32,000 bases of DNA, from the NCBI GenBank assembly GCA_021650915.1, contig CP091279.1:360001-392000 (forward strand). Direction: 5' to 3'. The DNA is from Candidatus Brocadia sp. Lineage in GTDB: Bacteria; Planctomycetota; Brocadiia; Brocadiales; Brocadiaceae. Within the stretch, counting starts at the first letter, position 1. Each line of letters opens with the position of its first letter. Under the pieces are notes generated by a model. The model was given only the letters and a program-made list of their open reading frames with translations, was not told the DNA's origin and ran no database searches. The position numbers and the translations under genes were made by a program. This document shows positions 4,920-30,385 of this stretch, piece after piece.

Positions 4920-5124
4920 GCTAAAATTCCTCCTTACATTTTCATTTGAAAATTAGGCTGCCTTTGGCAGCGACCTTTCGTTGCTTGTTCCCAAACAGAT
5001 GCTTCAACTGGCTCAGCACATGGTTTGGGAACGAGCCGCAAATCCATACGTGTTAAGTTAAACATCTATAATTACCCCCCCAAACGCCTTGTTCTGGCAA
5101 AGACGCCTCGCCGGTTCATCTTCA

Positions 5125-5300
5125 CTTGTCCCCCGCTGGCGGGGGGTAGGGGGGTGGACCGGACAGTCCGATCGCGTCTACCACCTTTTCAATCCTCTGT
5201 ATAACACCGCTCATATTCTTCAATACATCTTCGTCTGTAAGCCTGATTATGATAAATCCAGCGCTTTCAAGCGCCCGGGACTTCTGCTTATCTTTCTCCC
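5125..5300 (-). pseudogene. C-terminal remnant of a DUF559 / Vsr-like endonuclease-domain gene
   Basis: Only KSRALESAGFIIIRLTDEDVLKNMSGVIQRIEKVV resembles the conserved C-terminus of DUF559 proteins (LE..G..vlRf.n.dVl.n...Vl..I). The roughly 100-aa N-terminal catalytic part is absent. The upstream part of ORF 5122..5463 is low-complexity. Confidence 0.4.
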
Positions 5301-5378
5301 CAGTTTCATCGGCTTTTGGTTTTTCCTGCATTGTTTTCGTGTTCCTTTTCCACCCCCTGCCCCCGCCAGCGGGGGACA
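5127..5378. repeat. Perfect 19-bp GC-rich inverted repeat pair flanking the DUF559 remnant
   Basis: TGTCCCCCGCTGGCGGGGG at 5127-5145 is the exact reverse complement of CCCCCGCCAGCGGGGGACA at 5360-5378. Confidence 0.8.
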
Positions 5379-11804: not shown

Positions 11805-11960
11805 ACGCTCTTGCTTTCTTTTTAAACGCGTTTTCGAATAAATTGTTTATTAGTTATTCAAAATGAAATACAATTCATAGCGGCGTCTATTTAATTACGC
11901 AAATAGAAGTCCTAAACTCCATGTATGCGGATAGCCAAGTCTATTTCGCTTAAATAGTAG

Positions 11961-12085
11961 CAATCTAGCTTTTTGAAAAATTCTCTCCATAAATAATATC
12001 GTCTTGATAGGGGCAGGTTTCAAACCTGCTCCTACACGGTATGGTAAACATCGCCTTTATTGGGATTTTTCAAAAAGCTACATTG
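11961..12085. repeat. Nested palindromic element (outer 21-bp inverted repeat enclosing a GTAGG..CCTAC-type hairpin)
   Basis: Outer arms are CAATCTAGCTTTTTGAAAAAT (11961-11981) and ATTTTTCAAAAAGCTACATTG (12065-12085), with one mismatch. The inner hairpin is TAGGGGCAGGTTTCAAACCTGCTCCTAC (12008-12035). Confidence 0.65.
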
Positions 12086-12156
12086 TTACCTTAAATATAA
12101 ATATGATAGAAAAAAGGAGCGTTTTATCTTATACTCTTAGGCGAACATTATGATTT

Positions 12157-12310
12157 TGTAACACTTTAGTTTTTTTGAAAAATTACCATAATAACGATGT
12201 TGCCGCACGGTGTAGGGGCGAAGCATTTGCCATACACTGGCATACATGCATTCACACCCCAAGCAGGCAAATGCTTCGCCCCTACCTTTTCAAAAAACTA
12301 AAGTGTTACA
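12157..12310. mobile_element. MITE-like 154-bp nested palindromic element with a candidate 6-bp target duplication
   Basis: Terminal inverted repeats are TGTAACACTTTAGTTTTTTTGAAAA (12157-12181) and TTTTCAAAAAACTAAAGTGTTACA (12287-12310). A perfect inner 20-bp inverted repeat is GTAGGGGCGAAGCATTTGCC (12212-12231) with GGCAAATGCTTCGCCCCTAC (12266-12285). TGATTT occurs immediately on both sides (12151-12156 and 12311-12316). Confidence 0.55.
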
Positions 12311-18615: not shown

Positions 18616-20466
18616 GTGTCTGAACGAAAACGCACTTTTTGTAAAAGTGCGAGGTCGATTTTCTATTTACCAATAGATAATTTTAAGATTTGAGATTAGG
18701 GTTTTTGGCAAAAATACTGTTCTTTTACATATTTCCCTTGTTTTCCCCTTTATTTTAGCCTTGTCTGGGCGTACCTGCCTCCCGGCAGACTGTTTTTCTT
18801 CGTGTTTTTTGCTTGCTTAGGCGGCTTTTCGCAACTTTTCGCACTGCTTCCGTGCCTTCTCCTGCAGCACGTTTCCCAGCTTGTGCAAATTCGCAGCTAA
18901 CACGCCCATTGCACAATATCTTTTAAAGGCATGCAGCCCTTTGTCCGGACACCTATCCAAGCCGTGATGCTCCAAACGATTGATATCCGATTCTACCGCC
19001 GAGTGCTTGTGCCTTAGCTTCTTAAATGTCTTACCCGATTCCTCTTCCTGTTCCGCCTTATTCTTCTTGCCCTTCTTGGGAAGGATTACCTCTGGTATAT
19101 ACAAACTCAGCAACTCTTTATTCTCTTTCTTGTAAAAACCTTTATCAAAACTTATACTCTTTATTGTGCCTTCTCCGTAACGGCTCAACAACCTATCTGC
19201 CAATGGAATTACCAACGATACATCCGCCTGTTTTTCTCCTACCACATGGTCCACGATGAAACCCCACTGATCGCTTGCTACCAGAATATTATGTCCCAAC
19301 TCTACCCTTTTGTTTGACTTGCCTTTGTACAGCCACTCCGTATGCGGCTCAAACAACGAATGAACCTTTTCTGCCGCCGGTATTACCTCATCCCGGATCA
19401 CCCTTCTCTCCACCAGGTCTATCTGTTTATTCAACATCCCGTGAAAATACTCCAGTGTCCCTATTTTCCCTGCATGCTTGTCTACCTGGTTCGTCGTTAG
19501 CACCTTTTCGTAGATGGCTAACAGACTCGCTCCTATCTTTTCACTCAAACCCCTCGATAATTCCAAGTAACTCCTCACATGCTCTTCCTTGTTTTTCCCC
19601 CCCGCTGCTTGACGCCTTTGCGCTTATCCTCATCAGCTTTTTTAACTCTCTCCTCCAATATTTGCTCTTGCGCCATCCTTTCCCCGCCAGGATGCCTTCC
19701 TCTATTGCATCCTCTATCATGTCCAGACTCTTGCGTCCCGCATCCCACAATAAATTCATATCGGTCGGAAAGTGTACATTCGTCTCTAACACATACGTAT
19801 CCACCTTAATACACAGTCCTTCGTCCTTTTTTTTAACCAACTGATGCCCCGATGATATCACCACTTCATTTATCTGCCTGAGGGTCTCCTCATCCAACAA
19901 TCTTATATTGTCCTTGATGCTCTGCATCGAAAAAACCTTCGCCTCTCCAAATGCCGTCTCAACCCCCATTATCTGCCTGATAAGTTTGTGATGGTTGGCA
20001 AAATCCTCCAACCTGTCATAATCGGCATCTAACCCTAATCTTACCACCGACAACACCAAAATATGCCATAAATCCATCCCATATCTTCCCGTCTTTTTTC
20101 TTCCCCTTCGTTACCTTCGCCTCTAATATCCGGAATACCTCCTCGTTCAACTCCGGTGTAACATAGATATGTTGCAACGCCCTCAGTATCGGTGGTAGCT
20201 CATCTCGACTCTTTATTGGCAGTTTTACCCCTGAAATGGGTATGATGCCAAGCTTCAATTGCTGCTCAAATCTCTTTCTCATCTTCTATCGAATGTCCTT
20301 TGGCTAGTGGGTTAATGAACCGAATATTTGGACTCTTTATACCCAGAATCCCTTCATTTTCGCCATATTTTACCCTTTTACCCGAAAAAATTCAATGACT
20401 TTCATGAACATTTTTCACCAGCTTCTCCTTACTTTACAGGGCTCTGGGGGGTTTCCGTTCAAACAC
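18616..20466 (-). mobile_element. IS element copy 1 (DDE transposase, ISNCY/IS5-like), 1851 bp, inserted in vapC
   Basis: It matches 28440-30289 except for one extra T in a T-run (20094-20099). Terminal inverted repeats are GTGTCTGAACGAAAAC and GTGTTTGAACGGAAAC (reverse complement). The 6-bp direct repeat TATGTA lies at 18610-18615 and 20467-20472. Confidence 0.85.
18817..20282 (-). pseudogene. Transposase of IS copy 1, broken into three ORFs
   Basis: ORFs 20016..20282, 19541..20077 and 18817..19578. The extra break relative to copy 2 comes from an A6 run versus an A5 run (plus-strand T-run 20094-20099). Confidence 0.75.
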
Positions 20467-20845: not shown

Positions 20846-20885
20846 CGATAAAATAAATGTTGCGTCGGTAAAATAAATGTTGCGT
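20846..20885. repeat. Tandem 20-bp direct repeat, two copies
   Basis: GATAAAATAAATGTTGCGTC is followed directly by GGTAAAATAAATGTTGCGTA. The pair lies about 100 bp upstream of the vapB promoter. Confidence 0.7.
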
Positions 20886-20929
20886 AAGAATAACCTAGCG
20901 CAGCACAGCCGCAACCAAATTTCCTTTAT

Positions 20930-21040
20930 GAAAGTGGGGAGATTGCTTCGGAAAAGGCCCTCGCAATGACAGCGACCATGCACTTTTTGATGGCACACTG
21001 CACGTTGTCATTGCGAGTGAAGCGAAGCAATCTTTCACTC
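20930..21040. repeat. Imperfect palindromic element (GATTGCTTCG..CTCGCAATGACA / TGTCATTGCGAG..CGAAGCAATC)
   Basis: The arms are AGATTGCTTCGGAAAAGGCCCTCGCAATGACAGCG and CGTTGTCATTGCGAGTGAAGCGAAGCAATCT, separated by about 35 nt. Confidence 0.55.
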
Positions 21041-21118
21041 ATAAAAACGGTACCTCTTGAAAGGGGGTTGTAAAATAATGCAAAAAGAGAAGATTTTATA
21101 AGATAATACTATACGTAA

Positions 21119-21859: not shown

Positions 21860-22381
21860 ATGAAAAGGACAGATAACAAAGCTCTTCACCTGATTGCAGT
21901 TCCGCCGTCTGAAAAGGCGCTTAGTCAGACAATTGGCGAAGCGCATCGGCGTTACACGCGTCGCATAAACTTCCGGGAAGGCTGGAGAGGACACCTATGG
22001 CAAGGACGTTTTGCCTCTTTTCCCATGGACAAAACCCATCTGTACGTAGCCGCACGCTATGTTGAACTGAATCCCGTAATGGCAAATTTGGTTAAGAAAC
22101 CACAGGATTACCGATGGAGCAGTGCATCTGCACACATTGCTGGGCGAGATGATCGACTTGTGCATGTAGCTCCGTTGCTTGAAATGTTTGGCGAGTTGGG
22201 TGATTTTCTTTCCAGAGGCCTATCAGACGAAGAAGTCGAAAAGTTTCGATGTCACGAGCGAACCGGAAGACCTCTGGGCACTAACCGTTTTATAGCCAGG
22301 CTTGAAAATGTTCTTGGAAGAATGCTCAATAAGCAGAAACCCGGCCCAAAGGCGCTTCAAAAGAAAAATAAGAATCTCTAA
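21860..22381 (+). pseudogene. N-terminally truncated HUH/Y1 transposase-like gene (COG1943 / RayT-like family)
   Basis: HLIAVPPSEKALSQTIGEAHRRYTRRINFREGWRGHLWQGRFASFPMDKTHLYVAARYVELNPVMANLV..YRWSSASAH matches the family from the HUH strand onward. The first roughly 70 residues are absent. NKALHL stands where the HUH motif (NHVHL) is expected. The ORF starts 2 nt after the hicA stop. Confidence 0.65.
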
Positions 22382-22398
22382 AATTAAGTATGGTGTCC
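22382..22398 (+). repeat. Left half of the 32-bp repeat (copy X) split by the group II intron
   Basis: AATTAAGTATGGTGTCC here joins CCGGAATTCCAAC at 24385-24397. The joined sequence matches the reverse complement of 26384-26415 (AATTAAGCATGGTGTCCCCCAGAATTCCCAAC). Confidence 0.75.
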
Positions 22399-22893
22399 GT
22401 ACGCAGTAACATTTGTTTATTCTTACGGGTTAAAGTCCCGTCCGGGAATTATCCGTTCACCCCGGTAGTTCAAGGGAGCGGCGTCTGAGCAATCAGGGGT
22501 CGTAAGTTCCCAATTGGCAAAACCGCAGGCTGCAGCGCAAGCGAACCTACAAGTAGCCTCGTCAATACAAATTGAAGATGCCGACCCCGTGGACACGTGG
22601 GGAAGGCCGAAGATTGCAGACTCAGGCAACGGAAGGAGTCTGTAATATCTTCCGGGGTAGCAGGGGCGGCATGCAGTGGAAGATAAACAGACCAGTGCTG
22701 GAGACCCTATGCAGTAATGTTTGAGGGGCATAAACCGCTCTGTATAAGGAAACGAAATCACAGCGGGCTGTATAGGGAGTCGGAGGGGTTCATGATACCG
22801 TTTGAGGACAAGGGACAACAAAACCCTGTTCGAGGAAAGGAACCCTGCTTTGTTCATGCAACCGAAGAGTAGAGGAAAAGGGAGATTGCAGAA

Positions 22894-24210
22894 ATGCTAA
22901 CAACCCCGGAAAAGATCAGGATACTACAGAGGAAGCTATACCGAAAGGCCAAGCAAGAACCAACCTACCGCTTCTACGCCCTCTATGACAAGGTATTCCG
23001 GGCAGACATCCTCAGTCATGCTTACACCCTTGTCCGTGCCAACAAAGGGAGCGCCGGGATAGACGGCGTAACCTTCGAGGCCATCGAGGAAAGAGAAGGG
23101 GTATCCGCCTTTCTGGCGGAACTGCAAGAAGCACTCAGGAGCAAGACCTATCAAGCAAGCCCTGTAAAACGAGTAATGATACCCAAGACGGACGGAACGG
23201 AACGCCCGTTAGGCATTCCCACCATCCGTGACAGGGTAGCGCAGATGGCCGTAAAACTGGTCATAGAACCCATTTTTGAAGCCGATTTCTGCGAATGTTC
23301 ATACGGGTTCAGGCCGAAGAAATCTGCCCACGATGCCGTAGATGACGTAGCATATACCCTCAACAAGGGATATACCGAAATCATAGACGCCGACCTGTCC
23401 AAATACTTTGACACCATCCCCCATGCCAAGCTTATGGCTGTGGTAGCAGAGCGCATCAGTGACGGTGAGATACTGCACCTGATAAAGACGTGGCTCAAGG
23501 CTCCGGTCATAGAAAAAGGCAGAGACGGAAAACAAAGGAACATCGGCGGAGGTAAAGGGAACCGGAAAGGCACACCTCAAGGAGGAGTAATCTCACCGTT
23601 ACTAGCCAATCTCTACCTGCACCTCCTGGACAGGATATGGGAGAGACATCGACTGGAGAAGAAACTCGGAGCCAGATTAGTACGCTTTGCCGATGACTTT
23701 GTCGTACTGTGCAGGCAAGGAACTGAACAGCCAATGGCGATAACAAAGCGGGTGCTGGACAAACTGGGACTGACGTTAAACGAGGCAAAGAGCCGTGTAG
23801 TAGACGCCATGAAAGAGGGATTTACCTTTCTTGGGTTTGAACTTCAAAAGAGGAAGAATTGGCGCACGGGGAAGAGTTATCCCCATGTTCAGCCGTCGAA
23901 GAAATCTCTCAAGAAGATAAAAGACCACATTACGGCACTTACCAGCAGGAACAGGTCCCCTCTACCGTTTGAAGCGATAGTCAAAGAGGTGAATACGGCA
24001 CTGATAGGATGGACAGGATACTTCCATTATCGCAATTGCAGCAGAGTCCTCAAGCAAGTAAGAGAACACGCTCAATTCCGGCTTCGGATACACCTGTACA
24101 GACGTCATAAAATCAGAGACAGGAAGACAGGGCTTAAGCGATACACAAACAGCATGTTATATGAGAGATATGGTCTTTACAAAGTGCCGACCACAGCGGT
24201 ATGGAGATAG
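22894..24210 (+). CDS. Group II intron reverse transcriptase/maturase
   Basis: 438 aa. RT motifs include RPLGIPTIRDRVAQ, YGFRPKKSAHDA, the VRFADDFVVL (YADD-type) box and PQGGVISPLLANLYL. The maturase X-domain motifs are GWTGYFHY and ..RYGLYKV. There is no HNH/En domain. Confidence 0.9.
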   Translation: MLTTPEKIRILQRKLYRKAKQEPTYRFYALYDKVFRADILSHAYTLVRANKGSAGIDGVTFEAIEEREGVSAFLAELQEALRSKTYQASPVKRVMIPKTDGTERPLGIPTIRDRVAQMAVKLVIEPIFEADFCECSYGFRPKKSAHDAVDDVAYTLNKGYTEIIDADLSKYFDTIPHAKLMAVVAERISDGEILHLIKTWLKAPVIEKGRDGKQRNIGGGKGNRKGTPQGGVISPLLANLYLHLLDRIWERHRLEKKLGARLVRFADDFVVLCRQGTEQPMAITKRVLDKLGLTLNEAKSRVVDAMKEGFTFLGFELQKRKNWRTGKSYPHVQPSKKSLKKIKDHITALTSRNRSPLPFEAIVKEVNTALIGWTGYFHYRNCSRVLKQVREHAQFRLRIHLYRRHKIRDRKTGLKRYTNSMLYERYGLYKVPTTAVWR

Positions 24211-24238
24211 CGCATGCCTTATGGTGAAGGGCATCGGA

Positions 24239-24272
24239 AAGCCGTGTGCGGGAAAACCGCAAGCACGGTTTG
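24239..24272 (+). ncRNA. Group II intron catalytic domain V
   Basis: AAGCCGTGTGCGGGAAAACCGCAAGCACGGTTTG has the AGC triad, a two-part helix with a bulge and a GAAA tetraloop. It aligns position by position with the domain V consensus (GAGCCGUAUGCGAUGAAAGUCGCACGUACGGUUC). Confidence 0.8.
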
Positions 24273-24384
24273 ATGAGGGAGGACTGGCGAAATAGCATGG
24301 TGAGGCTACTGAGGCACTGCCAGACGAAAGGGGCAGAAACAGATAGGCCAACCTAAACTATAGATAGCCAGTTCCCTACTCTAC

Positions 24385-24397
24385 CCGGAATTCCAAC
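24385..24397 (+). repeat. Right half of the 32-bp repeat (copy X)
   Basis: CCGGAATTCCAAC lies immediately after the intron 3' end. See 22382-22398. Confidence 0.7.
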
Positions 24398-24398
24398 T

Positions 24399-24692
24399 AT
24401 GAATCCAAGAGTAAAAGCAGTAAAGGCAAGAGATGACTATAAACTCGAGATAACCTTCTCAAATGGTGAGGTTGGCATGTACGATTGCAGTCCTTTGCTT
24501 AATTTCGGTGTATTCACCGAGTTGAAAGACAAAATTTATTTTCAACAGGCGAGGGCGGCACATGGAACTGTCGTATGGCCGCATGAGCAGGATATATGTC
24601 CCGACACGTCATATTTAGATTCTGTAAAAATAAAAAAGTCTCCTAACAAATCACTCCAGCGAACTGGCACAAAAAGCCGTGCCAGCCACTGA
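24399..24692 (+). CDS. DUF2442 family protein (cassette 1)
   Basis: MNPRVKAVKARDDYKLEITFSNGEVGMYDCSPLLNFGVFTELKDKIYFQQARAAHGTVVWPHEQDICPDTSYL matches the DUF2442 pattern. The last roughly 17 codons (SPNKSLQRTG...) are read-through into the attC-like site. Confidence 0.7.
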   Translation: MNPRVKAVKARDDYKLEITFSNGEVGMYDCSPLLNFGVFTELKDKIYFQQARAAHGTVVWPHEQDICPDTSYLDSVKIKKSPNKSLQRTGTKSRASH

Positions 24693-24707
24693 GTTTTGTC
24701 GTTCAGC
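24641..24707 (+). other. attC-like recombination site A (67 bp)
   Basis: R'' is TCCTAAC, followed by a 5-nt spacer and L'' ACTCCAGC..CTGGCAC. This pairs with L' GTGCCAG..ACTGAGT, followed by a 6-nt spacer TTTGTC and R' GTTCAGC. There is an extrahelical C in L'' and a spacer asymmetry of 5 versus 6 nt. Confidence 0.6.
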
Positions 24708-24720
24708 CAAATAAATATTG

Positions 24721-24969
24721 ATGAAATACCTCGTTTAATTAAAACCGAAAGCAATTAAAGATTTGAAAAACATTCCCAAAGCAGATGGGAAGAGGATCGT
24801 TGAAAAGCTGAAGCTTCTTGAAGATAATCTTCAGGGAGACGTAAAGAAATTGACCAATCATACTCCAGAGTATAGAATGCAAGTTGGAGACTGGCGCATT
24901 CTTTTCGAGGTAGAGGAAGAAAAAATAATCATTTATCGTACTCGCCATCGAAGAGAAGCATATAATTAG
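24721..24969 (+). pseudogene. RelE/ParE-family toxin gene with an in-frame TAA at codon 6 (cassette 2)
   Basis: It reads ATG AAA TAC CTC GTT TAA TTA AAA CCG AAA GCA ATT AAA GAT..., giving MKYLV*LKPKAIKDLKNIPKADGKRIVEKL...YRMQVGDWRILFEVEEEKIIIYRTRHRREAY. This matches the RelE family across the stop at 24736-24738. Confidence 0.7.
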
Positions 24970-24978
24970 GAGACGGTC

Positions 24979-25173
24979 ATGACCCTTCATCCACAAATTA
25001 TTGAAAAAGACGGTAAAAAAGAATTTGTTGTTTTGTCCTATGAGGAGTTTTTGCAAATCGAAGAAGCATTAGAAGATTTTGAAGATCTAAAAGAGCTGAG
25101 AAAAGAAAAAGAAGAATCAAAGGACCAGCCGACTACTCCTCTTGATAAGGTTGCTAAAGAGCTTAATCTATAA
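24979..25173 (+). CDS. Phd/YefM-type antitoxin (downstream of its toxin)
   Basis: MTLHPQIIEKDGKKEFVVLSYEEFLQIEEALEDFEDLKELRKEKEES is typical of Phd/YefM-like antitoxins. An AGGAGA RBS precedes the ATG. Confidence 0.7.
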   Translation: MTLHPQIIEKDGKKEFVVLSYEEFLQIEEALEDFEDLKELRKEKEESKDQPTTPLDKVAKELNL

Positions 25174-25177
25174 AAAA

Positions 25178-25233
25178 GCATAACAAATCAGCCTGGTAGG
25201 GTGCGCATCGCGCACCTTTCACAGCGGTTGGCA
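25178..25233 (+). other. Possible degenerate attC-like site (56 bp) or GC-rich hairpin repeat
   Basis: GCATAAC is followed by AAATC, and the segment ends in GTTGGCA. The central perfect hairpin is GGTGCGC-ATC-GCGCACC. Pairing of the flanking arms is poor, so the call is tentative. Confidence 0.3.
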
Positions 25234-25264
25234 ATATGCGGCCGAAAGGCTTTTCCACCAACCG

Positions 25265-25358
25265 GCTTAACAAGCCGCTGCACCGGACCCGCGCCCAACG
25301 GCGGCGCTTATTGCTTCCGGGCTCGGTGTGCGCAGGCCGGTGAGCTTGGTCGTTAGAT
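25265..25358 (+). other. attC-like recombination site B (94 bp)
   Basis: R'' is GCTTAAC, followed by the spacer AAGCC and L'' GCTGCACCGG. This pairs with L' CCGGTGAGC (extrahelical G), followed by the spacer TTGGTC and R' GTTAGAT, which fits GTTRRRY. Confidence 0.6.
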
Positions 25359-25383
25359 GAAAATAACAATATGGAGGTAAAAA

Positions 25384-25605
25384 ATGAAGGAGATAACAAC
25401 AACAGACATCCTTGCATTGTCAATACCTGAAAGAATTCAGCTCGTAGAGGACATTTGGGATACTATTGCCAACGAACCGGAGGCGATAGAATTAACAGAG
25501 GAGGAAAAAAAGATAATTGATGAACGATTGGAGGCTTACCATAGAAATTCTGATTTAGGTTCTCCATGGGAAGATGTTTACAGAAGGATAGTGACTAAGC
25601 AGTGA
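25384..25605 (+). CDS. Addiction-module antitoxin (putative addiction module component family)
   Basis: ILALSIPERIQLVEDIWDTIANEPEAIELTEEEKKIIDERLEAYHRN matches the family usually paired with ParE/RelE toxins. It overlaps the downstream toxin gene as GTGA. Confidence 0.65.
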   Translation: MKEITTTDILALSIPERIQLVEDIWDTIANEPEAIELTEEEKKIIDERLEAYHRNSDLGSPWEDVYRRIVTKQ

Positions 25606-25894
25606 AATACAAAGTTATAATCAGACCTGAAGCCGAAAATGACTTGAAGGAAGCGTTTTCCTGGTACGAAGACAAAAGGCTGGAGTTGGGATATGACTTC
25701 CTGCTGCAGGTCGATGCGGGCCTTAAGTTCATAGAGAGAAATCCAGAAGTCCATTCGTTTCGTTGGAATATAAAGGAACAAGAAAACACCTCATCAAAAG
25801 GTTTCCATACAAAATTATTTATCTTGTTGAAAAAGAAAAGACAATAGTCCTTACTGTAATTCATGAATTCATGGCAGGAGAAGCCCTGCTTTAA
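25602..25894 (+). pseudogene. ParE/RelE-family toxin gene with a frameshift (cassette 3)
   Basis: The first frame gives MKYKVIIRPEAENDLKEAFSWYEDKRLELGYDFLLQVDAGLKFIERNPEV, then nonsense ending at 25847. The conserved C-terminus KHLIKRFPYKIIYLVEKEKTIVLTVIH continues in the -1 frame to the stop at 25892-25894. The frame switch lies at about 25745-25770. Confidence 0.7.
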
Positions 25895-25914
25895 TAAAAA
25901 AGAGGATAGAGGGC

Positions 25915-25972
25915 ATCTAACAAGTCGTTCCAGCGGACGGGCTTCGCCTGCTGCTGAACTTTGTCATTAGAC
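25915..25972 (+). other. attC-like recombination site C (58 bp)
   Basis: ATCTAACAAGTCGTTCCAGCGGACGGGCTTCGCCTGCTGCTGAACTTTGTCATTAGAC. R'' is ATCTAAC. L'' GTTC(C)AGC pairs with L' GCTGAAC. R' is ATTAGAC. As I recall it, the first half closely resembles the class 1 integron aadA 59-be (TCTAACAATTCGTTCAAGCCGACGCCGCTTCGC). Confidence 0.7.
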
Positions 25973-26005
25973 GAAACAACAAACCAAACAAAAGGAGGTA
26001 CCACG

Positions 26006-26377
26006 ATGATCCCGGAAAAACTGCTGGAAATTATGAAAAAGGATGGTGTCGTTGCCATTGCGACCGTGGGAAAGGATGGACCGCATATGGTCAACACCTG
26101 GAATAGCTACATCAGAATATCATCAGACGGACGATTGTTTATTCCGGCAGGTTACATGCATAAAACAGAGGCTAACATTGCCTACAACCCCAATGTGCTG
26201 ATTACGCTGGGAAGCAGCAAGGTTAAGGGCTTGCATGGCGCAGGTGCCGGTTTCTTAATCAAGGGAAAGGCGACGTTCATAACATCCGGACCAGATTTTG
26301 ATTTCATGAAGGAGAAATTCAGCTGGCTGCGTGCCACATTGGCCATTACCATCGATTCCGCGACTCAAACCTGGTAA
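26006..26377 (+). CDS. Pyridoxamine 5'-phosphate oxidase-like FMN-binding split-barrel protein (cassette 4)
   Basis: The ATG at 26006 is preceded by AAGGAGG. MIPEKLLEIMKKDGVVAIATVGKDGPHMVNTWNSYI...NIAYNPNVLITLGS...GFLIKGKATF fits the PNPOx-like family. The ORF-track TTG start at 25961 lies inside attC site C. Confidence 0.65.
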   Translation: MIPEKLLEIMKKDGVVAIATVGKDGPHMVNTWNSYIRISSDGRLFIPAGYMHKTEANIAYNPNVLITLGSSKVKGLHGAGAGFLIKGKATFITSGPDFDFMKEKFSWLRATLAITIDSATQTW

Positions 26378-26383
26378 AGATAA

Positions 26384-26415
26384 GTTGGGAATTCTGGGGG
26401 ACACCATGCTTAATT
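26384..26415 (-). repeat. Uninterrupted copy Y of the 32-bp repeat, inverted relative to copy X
   Basis: The plus strand reads GTTGGGAATTCTGGGGGACACCATGCTTAATT. Its reverse complement AATTAAGCATGGTGTCCCCCAGAATTCCCAAC matches the joined intron flanks. Confidence 0.75.
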
Positions 26416-26491
26416 ATTGACATTAATTTTAAAATAGTTAAGATGTATGCATACTACTATTCATCAACTTCTTGTTTTTTCTGAGTGTTTT

Positions 26492-28048
26492 TCATGCAGC
26501 CATTTCCGTAAGCGCTTTAATATCAAGGGCTGAAGCAGTCATCAGCGAACAAGGGAACTTCTGGCCTTTCTCCGTCAAGACATAGCGGTTGGCCCGTGGA
26601 ACTTTGCGGATTAGGCCGTGTGCCCGCAGCAGCTTTATCCGTCGGGCCGTACGACCGGAATACTTCTTTTGCTGATCCTTGCCGGCTTGTTCTGATTCCC
26701 GGTAAAGCCACTTACGCAAATCATGGTTGCGGAATCCGTTTATCGCGTTCTCACCTTTGGACAGGAACATCAGCATCCGGTAATCATCCTGCTGCCAGGG
26801 ATTCAAACCCCGATACCTCTTGCCCTCTTTGACAACCTTGTTACAAGCGCCGCACACCACTTCCTTCAGTTTCTCCTCCACCTGAGCCGCCGCTAAAGCA
26901 TCCCCATAACGATCGTTGCATTGCTGGCTCACCTCACACCGTCGATGAAGATCGCTCACGCCCTTACGCATCTTCTGCCATGACGCCGGTTTGCCTTCAT
27001 CATCATTGGGACTCCGAAAGACCTTAAAGTCCCGCGTATTATTGATCGTTGTCTCAATACGCAAGAGACTGCCGCTCTTGTTATACATCTTCACTGAATT
27101 ATAATTCACCCTGTGCTTAACCCGTATACCTTCATAGCGTCTTCGGTAGTCGCTGATAACCTCATCAGGAGCACTGCCTCCAAGGCTACGCCTACCCAAA
27201 TACTTCATCACCGAAGGACTGTCGCAAACCCGCATCGCATGATGAACAAACGACGGAAACAATTCCTCCAATGTCGCAACCGATTTAAACATGATGTCCG
27301 TCGCCCACTCCGTCTCATCCGCCGACCAGTAATACTCCGGTTCCAACGGACGAAGAACCTGCGACAATGCCGGGCAACTGCCCAACGCAAGACCGTTCAG
27401 CAGCTTCGCCCAGTCAGTCTTAAGCTGCTCATGGAGCAGTCCCTGCGCAGCCGCAATATCCTCTATGCGCACAAAACAGTTGCCGTCCTTAACATAATCA
27501 ATACCCTGCTTCTGAAGTTGCCGCTCCAGCCAGTGACGTCCGTTAAGACAAATGAAGATGTTGAACGGTACCCAACTCTGAATCCGGACATGACCAAAGC
27601 CAAACACCGGATCGTTAAAATAATGATACACAAAGACACACTTGCGGGGCTCCATCACCAACTTGAGCTTCTTGCTGGCCTTGTTGCCCTTAACCTTCGG
27701 CGCAATACAAGGCTCTACCACACTCAACAGACAGATGGAGCCTTCTGTAATCCTCTTGTCCTTCGCAATCTGGCGAGCCAGCTTATCCTTATCAACACCG
27801 CTGCTTGCCAAATATCTCACCTCAATACCCAAATCTTTCGCCCGCGATTCACAACTCTCCCGCACCTGTGCCGTAAGACCATTGACCCAATCGGAAAAAT
27901 CCTTCAGCAAAATCCTCGCATAACTCATGTATGTGCTCAGCCCCCGCTCACTGGCCAACCACCTCAATGTCCCTCGAAAACGAATCCTGTCCAGACCGCT
28001 TATTGCACCCATGATTCTGTCTCGATATAATTCCATCAACTTCTTCAT
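26492..28048 (-). CDS. Conserved hypothetical protein, 518 aa, possibly associated with a mobile element
   Basis: Long ORF with strong coding character; the 305-aa antisense ORF is low-complexity. I recognise no catalytic motif. The C-terminus RRIKLLRAHGLIRKVPRANRYVLTEKG looks like a winged-helix segment. It lies between the cassette array and IS debris. Confidence 0.55.
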   Translation of the reverse strand: MKKLMELYRDRIMGAISGLDRIRFRGTLRWLASERGLSTYMSYARILLKDFSDWVNGLTAQVRESCESRAKDLGIEVRYLASSGVDKDKLARQIAKDKRITEGSICLLSVVEPCIAPKVKGNKASKKLKLVMEPRKCVFVYHYFNDPVFGFGHVRIQSWVPFNIFICLNGRHWLERQLQKQGIDYVKDGNCFVRIEDIAAAQGLLHEQLKTDWAKLLNGLALGSCPALSQVLRPLEPEYYWSADETEWATDIMFKSVATLEELFPSFVHHAMRVCDSPSVMKYLGRRSLGGSAPDEVISDYRRRYEGIRVKHRVNYNSVKMYNKSGSLLRIETTINNTRDFKVFRSPNDDEGKPASWQKMRKGVSDLHRRCEVSQQCNDRYGDALAAAQVEEKLKEVVCGACNKVVKEGKRYRGLNPWQQDDYRMLMFLSKGENAINGFRNHDLRKWLYRESEQAGKDQQKKYSGRTARRIKLLRAHGLIRKVPRANRYVLTEKGQKFPCSLMTASALDIKALTEMAA

Positions 28049-28110
28049 TGTAGTACCCTCTAAATTGTCTGATTACTATTTACGAGGATAATACTATACC
28101 TTATAATAGA

Positions 28111-28320
28111 CTAAAAATCACACTTTGGTTGCGGCCAAAGGCCGCGCCAAGATGTCCCTATATCTCTGGCCACCTTTTGCACCTGTTCCCCCTCAAGTAG
28201 CTTTTTAATGATTCTGGCGCGCTCAACAAGCCGCCATTCCATACCCCGACTATTGACCCACTCATATAGAGTCTGCCAATCACTCTCGGAACAATAAGGT
28301 ATTGGTGCTTTTCTTGCCAT
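28111..28320 (-). pseudogene. N-terminal HTH fragment of an IS630-family-like transposase
   Basis: MARKAPIPYCSESDWQTLYEWVNSRGMEWRLVERARIIKKLLEGEQVQKVARDIGTS resembles the HTH N-terminus of IS630-type transposases. The reading frame then runs into a GC-rich hairpin repeat (TTGGTTGCGGCC-AAA-GGCCGCGCCAA, 28124-28150) and stops. No DDE domain follows. Confidence 0.5.
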
Positions 28321-28640
28321 TGTAGTCCCCCTTTGTAAGAAATAAAACAGAGTCTACAATATTTAAGTTATTTATGCAAGTAAACACTAGTATACAGACA
28401 TATTAATTACGAATTATATATTGTGGACAATTATAATTAGTGTCTGAACGAAAACGCACTTTTTGTAAAAGTGCGAGGTCGATTTTCTATTTACCAATAG
28501 ATAATTTTAAGATTTGAGATTAGGGTTTTTGGCAAAAATACTGTTCTTTTACATATTTCCCTTGTTTTCCCCTTTATTTTAGCCTTGTCTGGGCGTACCT
28601 GCCTCCCGGCAGACTGTTTTTCTTCGTGTTTTTTGCTTGC

Positions 28641-29402
28641 TTAGGCGGCTTTTCGCAACTTTTCGCACTGCTTCCGTGCCTTCTCCTGCAGCACGTTTCC
28701 CAGCTTGTGCAAATTCGCAGCTAACACGCCCATTGCACAATATCTTTTAAAGGCATGCAGCCCTTTGTCCGGACACCTATCCAAGCCGTGATGCTCCAAA
28801 CGATTGATATCCGATTCTACCGCCGAGTGCTTGTGCCTTAGCTTCTTAAATGTCTTACCCGATTCCTCTTCCTGTTCCGCCTTATTCTTCTTGCCCTTCT
28901 TGGGAAGGATTACCTCTGGTATATACAAACTCAGCAACTCTTTATTCTCTTTCTTGTAAAAACCTTTATCAAAACTTATACTCTTTATTGTGCCTTCTCC
29001 GTAACGGCTCAACAACCTATCTGCCAATGGAATTACCAACGATACATCCGCCTGTTTTTCTCCTACCACATGGTCCACGATGAAACCCCACTGATCGCTT
29101 GCTACCAGAATATTATGTCCCAACTCTACCCTTTTGTTTGACTTGCCTTTGTACAGCCACTCCGTATGCGGCTCAAACAACGAATGAACCTTTTCTGCCG
29201 CCGGTATTACCTCATCCCGGATCACCCTTCTCTCCACCAGGTCTATCTGTTTATTCAACATCCCGTGAAAATACTCCAGTGTCCCTATTTTCCCTGCATG
29301 CTTGTCTACCTGGTTCGTCGTTAGCACCTTTTCGTAGATGGCTAACAGACTCGCTCCTATCTTTTCACTCAAACCCCTCGATAATTCCAAGTAACTCCTC
29401 AC
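28641..29402 (-). CDS. IS transposase C-terminal part (orfB), +1 frame relative to orfA
   Basis: 253 aa. Homology continues across the orfA/orfB junction if one nt is skipped in the G7A5 run at 29415-29427 (..SSGGKNKEEHVRSYLELSRGLSEKI..). The C-terminal part carries SFDKGFY and HSAVESDINRLEHHGLDRC motifs. Confidence 0.75.
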   Translation of the reverse strand: MRSYLELSRGLSEKIGASLLAIYEKVLTTNQVDKHAGKIGTLEYFHGMLNKQIDLVERRVIRDEVIPAAEKVHSLFEPHTEWLYKGKSNKRVELGHNILVASDQWGFIVDHVVGEKQADVSLVIPLADRLLSRYGEGTIKSISFDKGFYKKENKELLSLYIPEVILPKKGKKNKAEQEEESGKTFKKLRHKHSAVESDINRLEHHGLDRCPDKGLHAFKRYCAMGVLAANLHKLGNVLQEKARKQCEKLRKAA

Positions 29403-30105
29403 ATGCTCTTCCTTGTTTTTCCCCCCCGCTGCTTGACGCCTTTGCGCTTATCCTCATCAGCTTTTTTAACTCTCTCCTCCAATATTTGCTCTTGCGCCAT
29501 CCTTTCCCCGCCAGGATGCCTTCCTCTATTGCATCCTCTATCATGTCCAGACTCTTGCGTCCCGCATCCCACAATAAATTCATATCGGTCGGAAAGTGTA
29601 CATTCGTCTCTAACACATACGTATCCACCTTAATACACAGTCCTTCGTCCTTTTTTTTAACCAACTGATGCCCCGATGATATCACCACTTCATTTATCTG
29701 CCTGAGGGTCTCCTCATCCAACAATCTTATATTGTCCTTGATGCTCTGCATCGAAAAAACCTTCGCCTCTCCAAATGCCGTCTCAACCCCCATTATCTGC
29801 CTGATAAGTTTGTGATGGTTGGCAAAATCCTCCAACCTGTCATAATCGGCATCTAACCCTAATCTTACCACCGACAACACCAAAATATGCCATAAATCCA
29901 TCCCATATCTTCCCGTCTTTTTCTTCCCCTTCGTTACCTTCGCCTCTAATATCCGGAATACCTCCTCGTTCAACTCCGGTGTAACATAGATATGTTGCAA
30001 CGCCCTCAGTATCGGTGGTAGCTCATCTCGACTCTTTATTGGCAGTTTTACCCCTGAAATGGGTATGATGCCAAGCTTCAATTGCTGCTCAAATCTCTTT
30101 CTCAT
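29365..30105 (-). CDS. IS transposase N-terminal part (orfA)
   Basis: 246 aa. MRKRFEQQLKLGIIPISGVKLPIKSRDELPPILRALQ...GMDLWHILVLSVVRLGLDADYDRL...DTYVLETNVHFPTDMNLLWDA is typical of ISNCY/IS5-like DDE transposases. Confidence 0.75.
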   Translation of the reverse strand: MRKRFEQQLKLGIIPISGVKLPIKSRDELPPILRALQHIYVTPELNEEVFRILEAKVTKGKKKTGRYGMDLWHILVLSVVRLGLDADYDRLEDFANHHKLIRQIMGVETAFGEAKVFSMQSIKDNIRLLDEETLRQINEVVISSGHQLVKKKDEGLCIKVDTYVLETNVHFPTDMNLLWDAGRKSLDMIEDAIEEGILAGKGWRKSKYWRRELKKLMRISAKASSSGGEKQGRACEELLGIIEGFE

Positions 30106-30385
30106 CTTCTATCGAATGTCCTTTGGCTAGTGGGTTAATGAACCGAATATTTGGACTCTTTATACCCAGAATCCCTTCATTTTCGCCATATTTTACCCTT
30201 TTACCCGAAAAAATTCAATGACTTTCATGAACATTTTTCACCAGCTTCTCCTTACTTTACAGGGCTCTGGGGGGTTTCCGTTCAAACACTAATTATATCG
30301 CGCCGCAAAACAGTATTTATATGTTTCGTTATTAATATGTCTCTACGCTAGCTTTTTAAGGAATGTCAGACCCGGTGTGTGGTCG

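Follow-up and report, generated by a model that had tools for sequence, protein, structure and literature searches.

Is a short run of small genes separated by imperfect inverted repeats, lying in the chromosome of an anammox planctomycete, a piece of an integron and, if so, in what state is it? The question is raised by the interval 24385-26383 of a 32,000-nt stretch of Candidatus Brocadia sp. DNA (GenBank assembly GCA_021650915.1, contig CP091279.1, positions 360,001 to 392,000 of the forward strand; we refer to the whole stretch as the window and number it from its first nucleotide). The original prediction, made from the letters of the sequence, described four small cassettes separated by three attC-like sites, saw no integrase gene nearby and compared the array with a cluster of attC sites lacking an integron integrase (CALIN). 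Our analysis supports this interpretation apart from a weak fourth site. We consider it very probable that the three sites are genuine integron attC sites and that the array is a CALIN, an eroded remnant in the Candidatus Brocadia chromosome. Genuine attC sites make the array a common type of cassette cluster without an integrase gene. The kind of element is familiar, and what this case adds is a further example of it from hosts (Brocadia and other anammox bacteria) for which we found no literature on integrons.

Three attC sites on one strand

The three sites all lie on the forward strand within 1.33 kb and differ in length. Site A (24641-24707, 67 nt) consists of R'' TCCTAAC, the spacer AAATC and L'' ACT[C]CAG..., with the spacer TTTGTC and R' GTTCAGC on the far side of the stem. 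Site B (25265-25358, 94 nt) has R'' GCTTAAC, the spacer AAGCC and L'' GCT[G]CACCGG..., then the spacer TTGGTC and R' GTTAGAT, and site C (25915-25972, 58 nt) has R'' ATCTAAC, the spacer AAGTC and L'' GTT[C]CAGC..., then the spacer TTTGTC and R' ATTAGAC. Direct reading thus bears out the predicted layout of R and L boxes and spacers, and at all three sites it shows the predicted unpaired base at position 4 of L'' (in square brackets above) as well as the asymmetry between 5-nt and 6-nt spacers. Folds of either strand give a bulged, imperfect hairpin for sites A, B and C. The R'' and R' boxes carry the AAC and GTT triplets of the forms RYYYAAC and GTTRRRY, except that the GTT is lost in site C only. 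The prediction had allowed either GTT or ATT in R'; sites A and B have GTT, and site C has ATT. Matches to the motif YTAACAARYC occur three times in the window, all of them at sites A to C, against about 0.77 expected, and only 1 of 100 shuffled sequences contained three. Each site terminates a cassette: site A ends the truncated DUF2442 cassette, with the crossover between G24701 and T24702, site B ends the ParE/Phd cassette, with the crossover between 25352 and 25353, and site C ends the Unstab_antitox/ParE cassette. From R' to the next start codon we measured 14, 26 and 34 nt, within the predicted range of 14-45 nt.

As a reference set, we cut by hand 15 attC sites from thirteen class 1 integrons, the IntI1 query being 100% identical to the sequence in the plasmid records. 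A MAFFT alignment of all 15 misplaced the long sites, and the 11 cleanly aligned plasmid sites were used to train a covariance model, R1, in which only the R and L pairs are specified; three of the four long sites (dfrA5, dfrA12 and arr-3) served as held-out controls. In an unfiltered search of both strands of the window, 64 kb in all, R1 recovered the three sites on the forward strand, with E-values that are rough: site B scored 46.2 bits (25265-25358, E 1e-9), site C 42.8 bits (25915-25972, E 8e-9) and site A 20.0 bits (24641-24708, E 5.5e-3). There was no fourth match of note in the window, the next best having E = 8.9. The held-out genuine sites scored 37.1 (dfrA12), 28.9 (dfrA5) and 26.2 bits (arr-3), so that by score sites B and C rank with good attC sites and site A with weak ones. 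Apart from genuine sites, 56 kb of plasmid DNA gave only a 13-bit match and, on the opposite strand, echoes of two attC sites. The covariance-model check proposed with the original prediction therefore comes out in its favour, with a model trained on plasmid sites.

The resemblance of site C to the aadA 59-base element, noted in the original prediction, is confirmed against a reference copy. Site C and the aadA1 attC of plasmid JF274991.1 share 43/60 positions (72%), with an alignment score of 24 against a shuffle mean of -9.1 (sd 4.1). At 58 nt as compared with 60 nt, site C has the same R''-5 nt-L'' and L'-6 nt-R' layout as the aadA1 and aadA2 sites, and it shares with aadA1 the extrahelical C16 and A23 (top strand), the latter being a second bulge, together with the apical loop CTTCG. 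It differs from the aadA1 and aadA2 sites in its spacers (AAGTC/TTTGTC versus AATTC/TCAAGC) and in its R' box (ATTAGAC versus GTTAGAT), and it is linked neither to intI1 nor to a resistance gene. Site B has the same L boxes, GCTGCACCGG and CCGGTGAGC, as the estX attC in one of our reference arrays (L019).

The weak fourth site at 25178-25233, which would define an ORF-less 125-bp mini-cassette (ORF, open reading frame), did not hold up. R1 gave no match there at E ≤ 10, the bottom strand folds into an internal GGTGCGC hairpin only, with no R/L pairing, and the candidate R' TTGGCA agrees with the complement of the site B R'' at 3/6 positions. A single 181-nt attC covering 25178-25358 was also rejected, its outer boxes being unpaired in the fold.

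No integrase gene accompanies these sites. We found no Phage_integrase or other tyrosine-recombinase domain among 39 ORFs (every non-nested ORF of at least 90 aa) searched against Pfam, and tblastn with IntI1 and six environmental IntI queries against the 32-kb window gave nothing better than E = 1.3. The syntenic contig L021, which extends 4.5 kb past the right end of the window, carries only housekeeping genes there (DnaJ, FtsX, chorismate synthase and EF-Tu). A complete integron, in which intI, attI and the promoter Pc adjoin the array, is not present in the window, where promoter-like sites occur at chance level. Both the predicted absence of intI from the 32 kb and the CALIN-like label are thereby upheld. 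A CALIN is defined by at least two attC sites and no integron integrase (Cury et al. 2016, PMC4889954), and the window has three same-strand attC sites inside 4 kb with no intI gene or pseudogene within 10 kb. The array further resembles CALINs in its non-resistance cassettes, which include toxin-antitoxin pairs, and in the insertion sequence (IS) elements nearby. It differs from them in being truncated at both ends against inverted repeat boxes associated with REP-type tyrosine transposase (RAYT) genes, in having both toxins pseudogenised and in having one attC without the crossover G.

Cassettes, their boundaries and related arrays

Where cassettes are integrated in an array, the six bases that follow the G of an R' are contributed by the cassette downstream and should therefore be complementary to the R'' of that cassette. 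We checked this boundary rule in reference arrays (L013 and L019), where the aadB R' GTTAGAC is followed by the aadA2 R'' GTCTAAC and the estX R' GTTAGCG by the psp R'' CGCTAAC. It also holds in two environmental arrays described below (L251 and L252). In the window, TTAGAT of the site B R' and ATCTAA of the site C R'' are complementary at 6/6 positions, and TTCAGC of the site A R' agrees with the complement of GCTTAA of the site B R'' at 5/6, while R' and R'' of one and the same site match at 3/6 positions for each site.

The cassettes all run on the forward strand. Cassette 1 (24395-24701) is truncated at its 5' side and consists of a DUF2442 gene (24399-24692; Pfam DUF2442, E 4e-12) and attC A only. 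Cassette 2 (24702-25352) is complete, with a ParE pseudogene (24721-24969), a Phd/YefM antitoxin gene (24979-25173) and attC B, as is cassette 3 (25353-25966), with an Unstab_antitox antitoxin gene (25384-25605), a frameshifted gene for a ParE-like toxin (25602-25894) and attC C. Cassette 4 (25967-26383) is truncated at its 3' side, with a PNPOx-like gene (26006-26377; Pfam PNPOx_N) and no attC. Three attC sites do separate four units as predicted, but these are not four intact cassettes: two complete ones (ParE/Phd and Unstab_antitox/ParE) stand between what is left of a DUF4160-DUF2442 cassette, its 3' half, and a PNPOx cassette without its attC. Pfam likewise agrees with the predicted cargo of DUF2442, two toxin-antitoxin pairs and a PNPOx-like protein, except that both ParE toxins turn out to be pseudogenes. 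In the toxin gene of cassette 2, codon 6 is an in-frame TAA (24736-24738); read through this stop the gene covers positions 1-89 of the ParE_toxin profile, whereas the ORF that starts after the stop covers positions 30-89 only. The toxin gene of cassette 3 matches ParE_toxin (profile positions 1-85 of 89) only once its frame is repaired.

The 123-aa PNPOx-like protein encoded at 26006-26377 has homologues that are 85-94% identical across phyla, on contigs assigned to Desulfuromonadales, Thermodesulfovibrionales, Omnitrophica, Kiritimatiellaceae, Verrucomicrobiota and a Methanomassiliicoccales archaeon. Conservation of this kind fits a recent spread as a cassette.

For the two missing ends the boundary rule predicts that cassette 1 began with TTAGG(A/C) and that the lost attC of cassette 4 began with GTCTAAC. 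L251 has a complete version of cassette 1 within an array that counts at least nine attC sites and adjoins an integron-integrase gene (TIGR02249, 339 bits versus a cut-off of 265); this cassette begins with TTAGGC and continues with DUF4160, DUF2442 and an attC with R'' GCCTAAC. The homology of the window to this cassette begins about 4 nt before the ATG of DUF2442, the DUF4160 gene being lost. L252 holds a PNPOx cassette with the same TTAGAC start and the predicted R'' GTCTAAC 77 nt past the stop codon, and here the homology of the window ends a few nucleotides after the stop codon. The full cassettes of L251 and L252 thus confirm both predictions.

Sites of this attC sub-family occur elsewhere. 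Searching one-genome-per-species contigs with the attC pattern, we found 98 loci, about 5 of which are estimated to be chance matches. The model was positive for 88 of the 98, many of these loci are same-strand arrays, and nine positive loci come from Brocadia or other anammox bacteria. Several sub-family attC sites are present in Brocadiaceae genomes other than that of the window (L076, L094, L106, L107, L111, L112 and L117). In five loci (L025, L037, L068, L074 and L119) a full-length IntI is encoded in the canonical divergent arrangement. Identity to IntI1 is 46-53% in these proteins, and the two that were scanned against NCBIfam matched TIGR02249 at 421 and 439 bits.

Comparison of related cassettes locates the break points between them at the triplet of R'. 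In Brocadiaceae S40-1, locus L112 matches the window at 89% identity from a point within the DUF2442 gene to 24703; the break is the GTT of site A, with unrelated sequence afterwards. Four site A orthologues have a mean column identity of 92% up to the GTT and then continue with CGAT, ATGT, ATTG and CAGC. Orthologous cassettes in different arrays thus diverge exactly after GTT. The site A orthologues reach R1 scores of 47.8 bits (IntI-linked L251) and 32.5 bits (L241); against the former, site A of the window shows two mismatches in the stem and one compensatory pair.

Remnants of intI are found in relatives of the host. Brocadia sp. WS118 retains about 34 N-terminal codons of intI, divergent from a GNAT and a PNPOx cassette, in a degenerate integron that extends from 5098-5199 (reverse strand) to 6484 of L253 (PHFX01000152.1). 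There, the attC of the GNAT cassette is reduced to GGCTAAAC-GTTAGCA, and the R'' TGCTAAC of the following PNPOx cassette matches its TTAGCA start. In Brocadiaceae S40-1, a C-terminal intI remnant of 33-38 residues lies among attC sites. The remnants in these two genomes indicate that the lineage has had integrons and that they are now eroding.

Array ends and the RAYT-associated repeat box

The original prediction had the array end at a 32-bp repeat in place of an attC site. The right-hand repeat is real; its inverted partner on the left was missed, because a group II intron splits it. The right box, an inverted and diverged copy, lies at 26388-26415 on the reverse strand and, with its flanks, matches the left copy at 29/33 positions. 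The left box lies on the forward strand in two parts, 22382-22398 and 24385-24394, of which the 3' part, CCGGAATTCC, adjoins the remnant of cassette 1. Between them stands the intron (22399-24384, forward strand, 1,986 nt, boundaries ±1 nt; Rfam RF02005 and RF00029), with a reverse transcriptase/maturase ORF at 22894-24210 on the same strand (TIGR04416, 397 bits) that has no endonuclease domain. It was inserted inside the box, between ...ATGGTGTCC and CCGGAATTCC. The intron is precisely missing from contig L020, which is otherwise 98-99% identical; in this allele the two parts are contiguous and the left box is intact, reading ...AATTAAGTATGGTGTCCCCGGAATTCC|AACTATG.... On the left the truncated cassette end meets the box directly; on the right, 10 nt of unassigned sequence separate the two.

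The left box is the 3' repeat of a RAYT-like (Y1/IS200-like) transposase remnant at 21860-22381 (forward strand), whose C-terminal part only is matched, by Y1_Tnp and NF047646 below cut-off; metagenome homologues of this gene are also followed by the same box. The 27-nt box, A-ATTAAGYATGGTGTCCCC-R-GAATTCC, has sharp borders and consists of a core 26-mer and one conserved upstream A. Among the matches listed, the core is exact in more than 120 metagenome contigs, and the box is often followed by tandem copies of CCGGAATTCC. Eleven of 127 boxes (about 9%) lie -1 to +79 nt 3' of a RAYT-like ORF, and most of these RAYT-like genes have a second, inverted box upstream, about 590-960 nt and commonly about 725 nt away. 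A RAYT gene flanked by inverted boxes is the layout of repetitive extragenic palindrome (REP)/RAYT systems, which assigns the repeat to REP/RAYT rather than the integron. None of the 98 genome loci with attC sites contains the box, and its sequence found no match in the literature or in Rfam.

The likeness to REP/RAYT systems concerns the flanking repeat only: in metagenomes a RAYT-like gene has a box at its 3' end and an inverted copy upstream, and many copies are solitary. Unlike REP sequences, the box does not appear to be a palindrome apart from GGAATTCC, its only self-complementary part, and direct reading of the 27-mer reveals no evident stem-loop. It also differs in being exact across contigs whose RAYT proteins are only 47-73% identical to that of the window, and in that the window copies face each other across 2 kb of cassettes. 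This box is the less expected item at the locus and may deserve a study of its own.

Other identities for the intron and the terminal repeat were considered and rejected. The intron is not a group IIC-attC intron: it interrupts the RAYT-associated box instead of an attC and has the orientation of the cassettes, in contrast to the ltrA group II intron reverse transcriptase/maturase in the class 1 integron of L016 (plasmid NZ_CP038280.1, 3628-5650), which is oriented opposite to the cassettes. Nor is the repeat the end of the neighbouring element that encodes a 518-aa protein, which extends over about 26452-28152 and lies 36 nt from the box; the window holds no third copy of the box, and none of 120 box-bearing contigs has a homologue of the 518-aa protein. 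Insertion by IntI at a secondary GTT in the box doublet (CCAAC ... GTTGG) is contradicted by the lack of an attC before the right GTTGGGA and of a TTRRRY cassette start on the left. We also dismissed the idea that the box, which bears some resemblance to ...CGGGGACACCA, is an attachment site or the 3' end of a tRNA; no tRNA was predicted in the window by ARAGORN.

In a second Brocadia species, Brocadia sp. CP091278.1 (L241, 9650-10000), a RAYT remnant likewise lies directly upstream of a DUF2442 cassette without a box, the DUF4160 gene is internally deleted and a solitary attC is followed by a 2,453-aa Tc-toxin gene. Given this arrangement, the junction between RAYT remnant and cassette seems to be older than its present contexts.

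State of the array, rival readings and chromosomal setting

We propose that the array descends from a complete integron in an ancestor or donor, whose integrase would have assembled the cassettes one at a time, presumably by recombining folded bottom-strand attC hairpins at the G|TT of R'. Later, the array would have been separated from intI and trimmed at both ends, each cut lying against one copy of the RAYT-associated box and the two copies being mutually inverted. The fragment appears to be decaying, as seen in the toxin pseudogenes, in the lost crossover G of site C and in stem mismatches of site A that are absent from its integrase-linked orthologue. At most the two internal cassettes could be excised, and then only by an integrase supplied in trans; the CALIN fragment is probably immobile. 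Four NCBI assemblies and five read-set contigs agree in cassette order and attC sites but for three 1-nt differences, and we read the array as a fixed, decaying remnant. With sedentary chromosomal integrons such as the Vibrio superintegron it shares the chromosomal location, the cargo of toxin-antitoxin genes and small genes of unknown function and the fixation across related genomes; it differs from these in having no intI, attI or Pc and in having only three heterogeneous, decaying attC sites (58, 67 and 94 nt).

Several points weigh against this reading. Site A reaches only 20 bits, and the attC calls come from a home-made model of 11 sequences, R1, whose shortened calibration makes the E-values rough. 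The R' of site C is ATTAGAC, with A for the crossover G, in every copy examined, which implies that the G has mutated to A. The integrase gene adjoining the complete cassette 1 in L251 encodes 265 aa covering only profile positions 119-315 and may thus itself be truncated. An intI gene may lie elsewhere on the source chromosome, our search having covered the window and 4.5 kb to its right. Finally, we infer the loss of mobility from the sequence.

The alternative that survives best, although we regard it as unlikely, is that a chromosomal integron still functions and the array is its distal part, with intI and attI placed elsewhere in the genome after a rearrangement and the cassettes still usable. 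About half of published CALINs reside in replicons that encode IntI (PMC4889954), several attC sites of the sub-family are present in the other Brocadiaceae genomes, and sites A and B have kept both the GTT and a good fold. Against this, the Brocadia and Brocadiaceae loci that we examined contain intI remnants only and no intact gene, both toxins are pseudogenes and site C has ATT, the cassette order is invariant across related Brocadia sequences, and the outer cassettes, each without a boundary, cannot be excised.

Much less credible is a reading in which boxes and cargo form one unit that a RAYT-type transposase can move, akin to REPINs but with 2 kb of cargo, and that arrived at the locus in this way; we judge it very improbable that part of an integron array was captured by a REP/RAYT system and relocated as a box-cargo-box unit. 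What speaks for such a unit is that the truncated cassette ends adjoin the boxes on both sides, that some metagenome contigs have another gene between convergent boxes, and that the two inverted copies remain similar for about 6 nt outside the generic box (AACTAT versus AACTTAT), on the left within cassette-derived sequence. This extension hints at an inverted duplication of the left junction, on thin evidence. However, we found neither a second location nor an empty site, all four assemblies that carry the unit have it in the same place, the adjacent RAYT gene is a truncated remnant, the right box has diverged, and in Brocadia CP091278.1 a RAYT remnant and the DUF2442 cassette adjoin without any box. 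If true, capture by REP/RAYT would amount to integrase-independent relocation of cassettes and would explain some CALINs far from intI.

That the sites are generic GC-rich hairpins, i.e. terminators or a local repeat family after small genes, can be practically discarded: hairpins do follow the ORFs and their fold z-scores are modest (-1.4 to -2.6), but the attC model matches sites A to C and nothing else, R' and R'' are complementary across cassettes, homology breaks at GTT, orthologous sites stand in IntI-linked arrays, no T-tract follows the stems and a terminator scan stays at chance level.

With the array read as a CALIN, anammox planctomycetes (Candidatus Brocadia, Brocadiaceae) join the hosts of integron cassettes, and cassettes shared with integrase-bearing arrays of other environmental bacteria document past gene flow by the integron route. 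The locus illustrates a CALIN in late decay, with trimmed ends, dead toxins and eroding attC sites; it carries no antibiotic-resistance cargo and demonstrates no new mechanism.

The window is 99.9% identical to contig LAQJ01000112.1 (GCA_000987375.1), an assembly that we take to be Candidatus Brocadia fulgida, and 95-99% identical to contigs of three further assemblies; NCBI names Candidatus Brocadia or Brocadiaceae as the source of close homologues of its proteins. The chromosomal neighbours are an ABC transporter, BacA and a cellulose-synthase-like gene on the left and inositol monophosphatase and SAICAR synthase on the right. The 8 kb around the array is strewn with mobile-element debris: a PIN fragment, a hicBA pair, the truncated RAYT-like gene, the group II intron, two copies of a DDE IS, the IS-like element encoding the 518-aa protein and an HTH_23 fragment that resembles the N-terminus of an IS630-type transposase.

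The two IS copies, which encode a DDE_Tnp_1 transposase, are near-identical (18617-20459 and 28440-30289). L020 lacks the first, and L021 and L022 lack the second, which makes both of them recent insertions in this genome. The ORF for the 518-aa protein (26492-28048) lies in an element on the reverse strand (about 26452-28152) that is inserted in the helix-turn-helix fragment at 28111-28320. The protein has no match in Pfam, NCBIfam, PHROG or PDB sequences; it has more than 4,000 homologues, the top 120 of which are 71-94% identical and almost all on contigs of 1.7-2.6 kb. Since homologues on such short contigs are the pattern of an assembly-breaking repeat, the element probably represents an uncharacterised insertion-sequence family.

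Further repeats are found farther from the cassettes. A palindromic repeat at 20880-21060 (gattgcttcgg...ctcgcaatgac / gtcattgcgagtgaagcgaagcaatc) is probably another dispersed repeat family, since a 39-nt piece of it recurs at 90% identity in the Brocadiaceae contig L076 (5915-5953). Between a glycosyltransferase and an FAD-oxidoreductase gene, 11957-12310 contains nested inverted repeats with arms of 20-30 nt that are 80-100% complementary, and at 5127-5378 a pair of 26-nt G/C-rich inverted repeats stands 200 nt apart.

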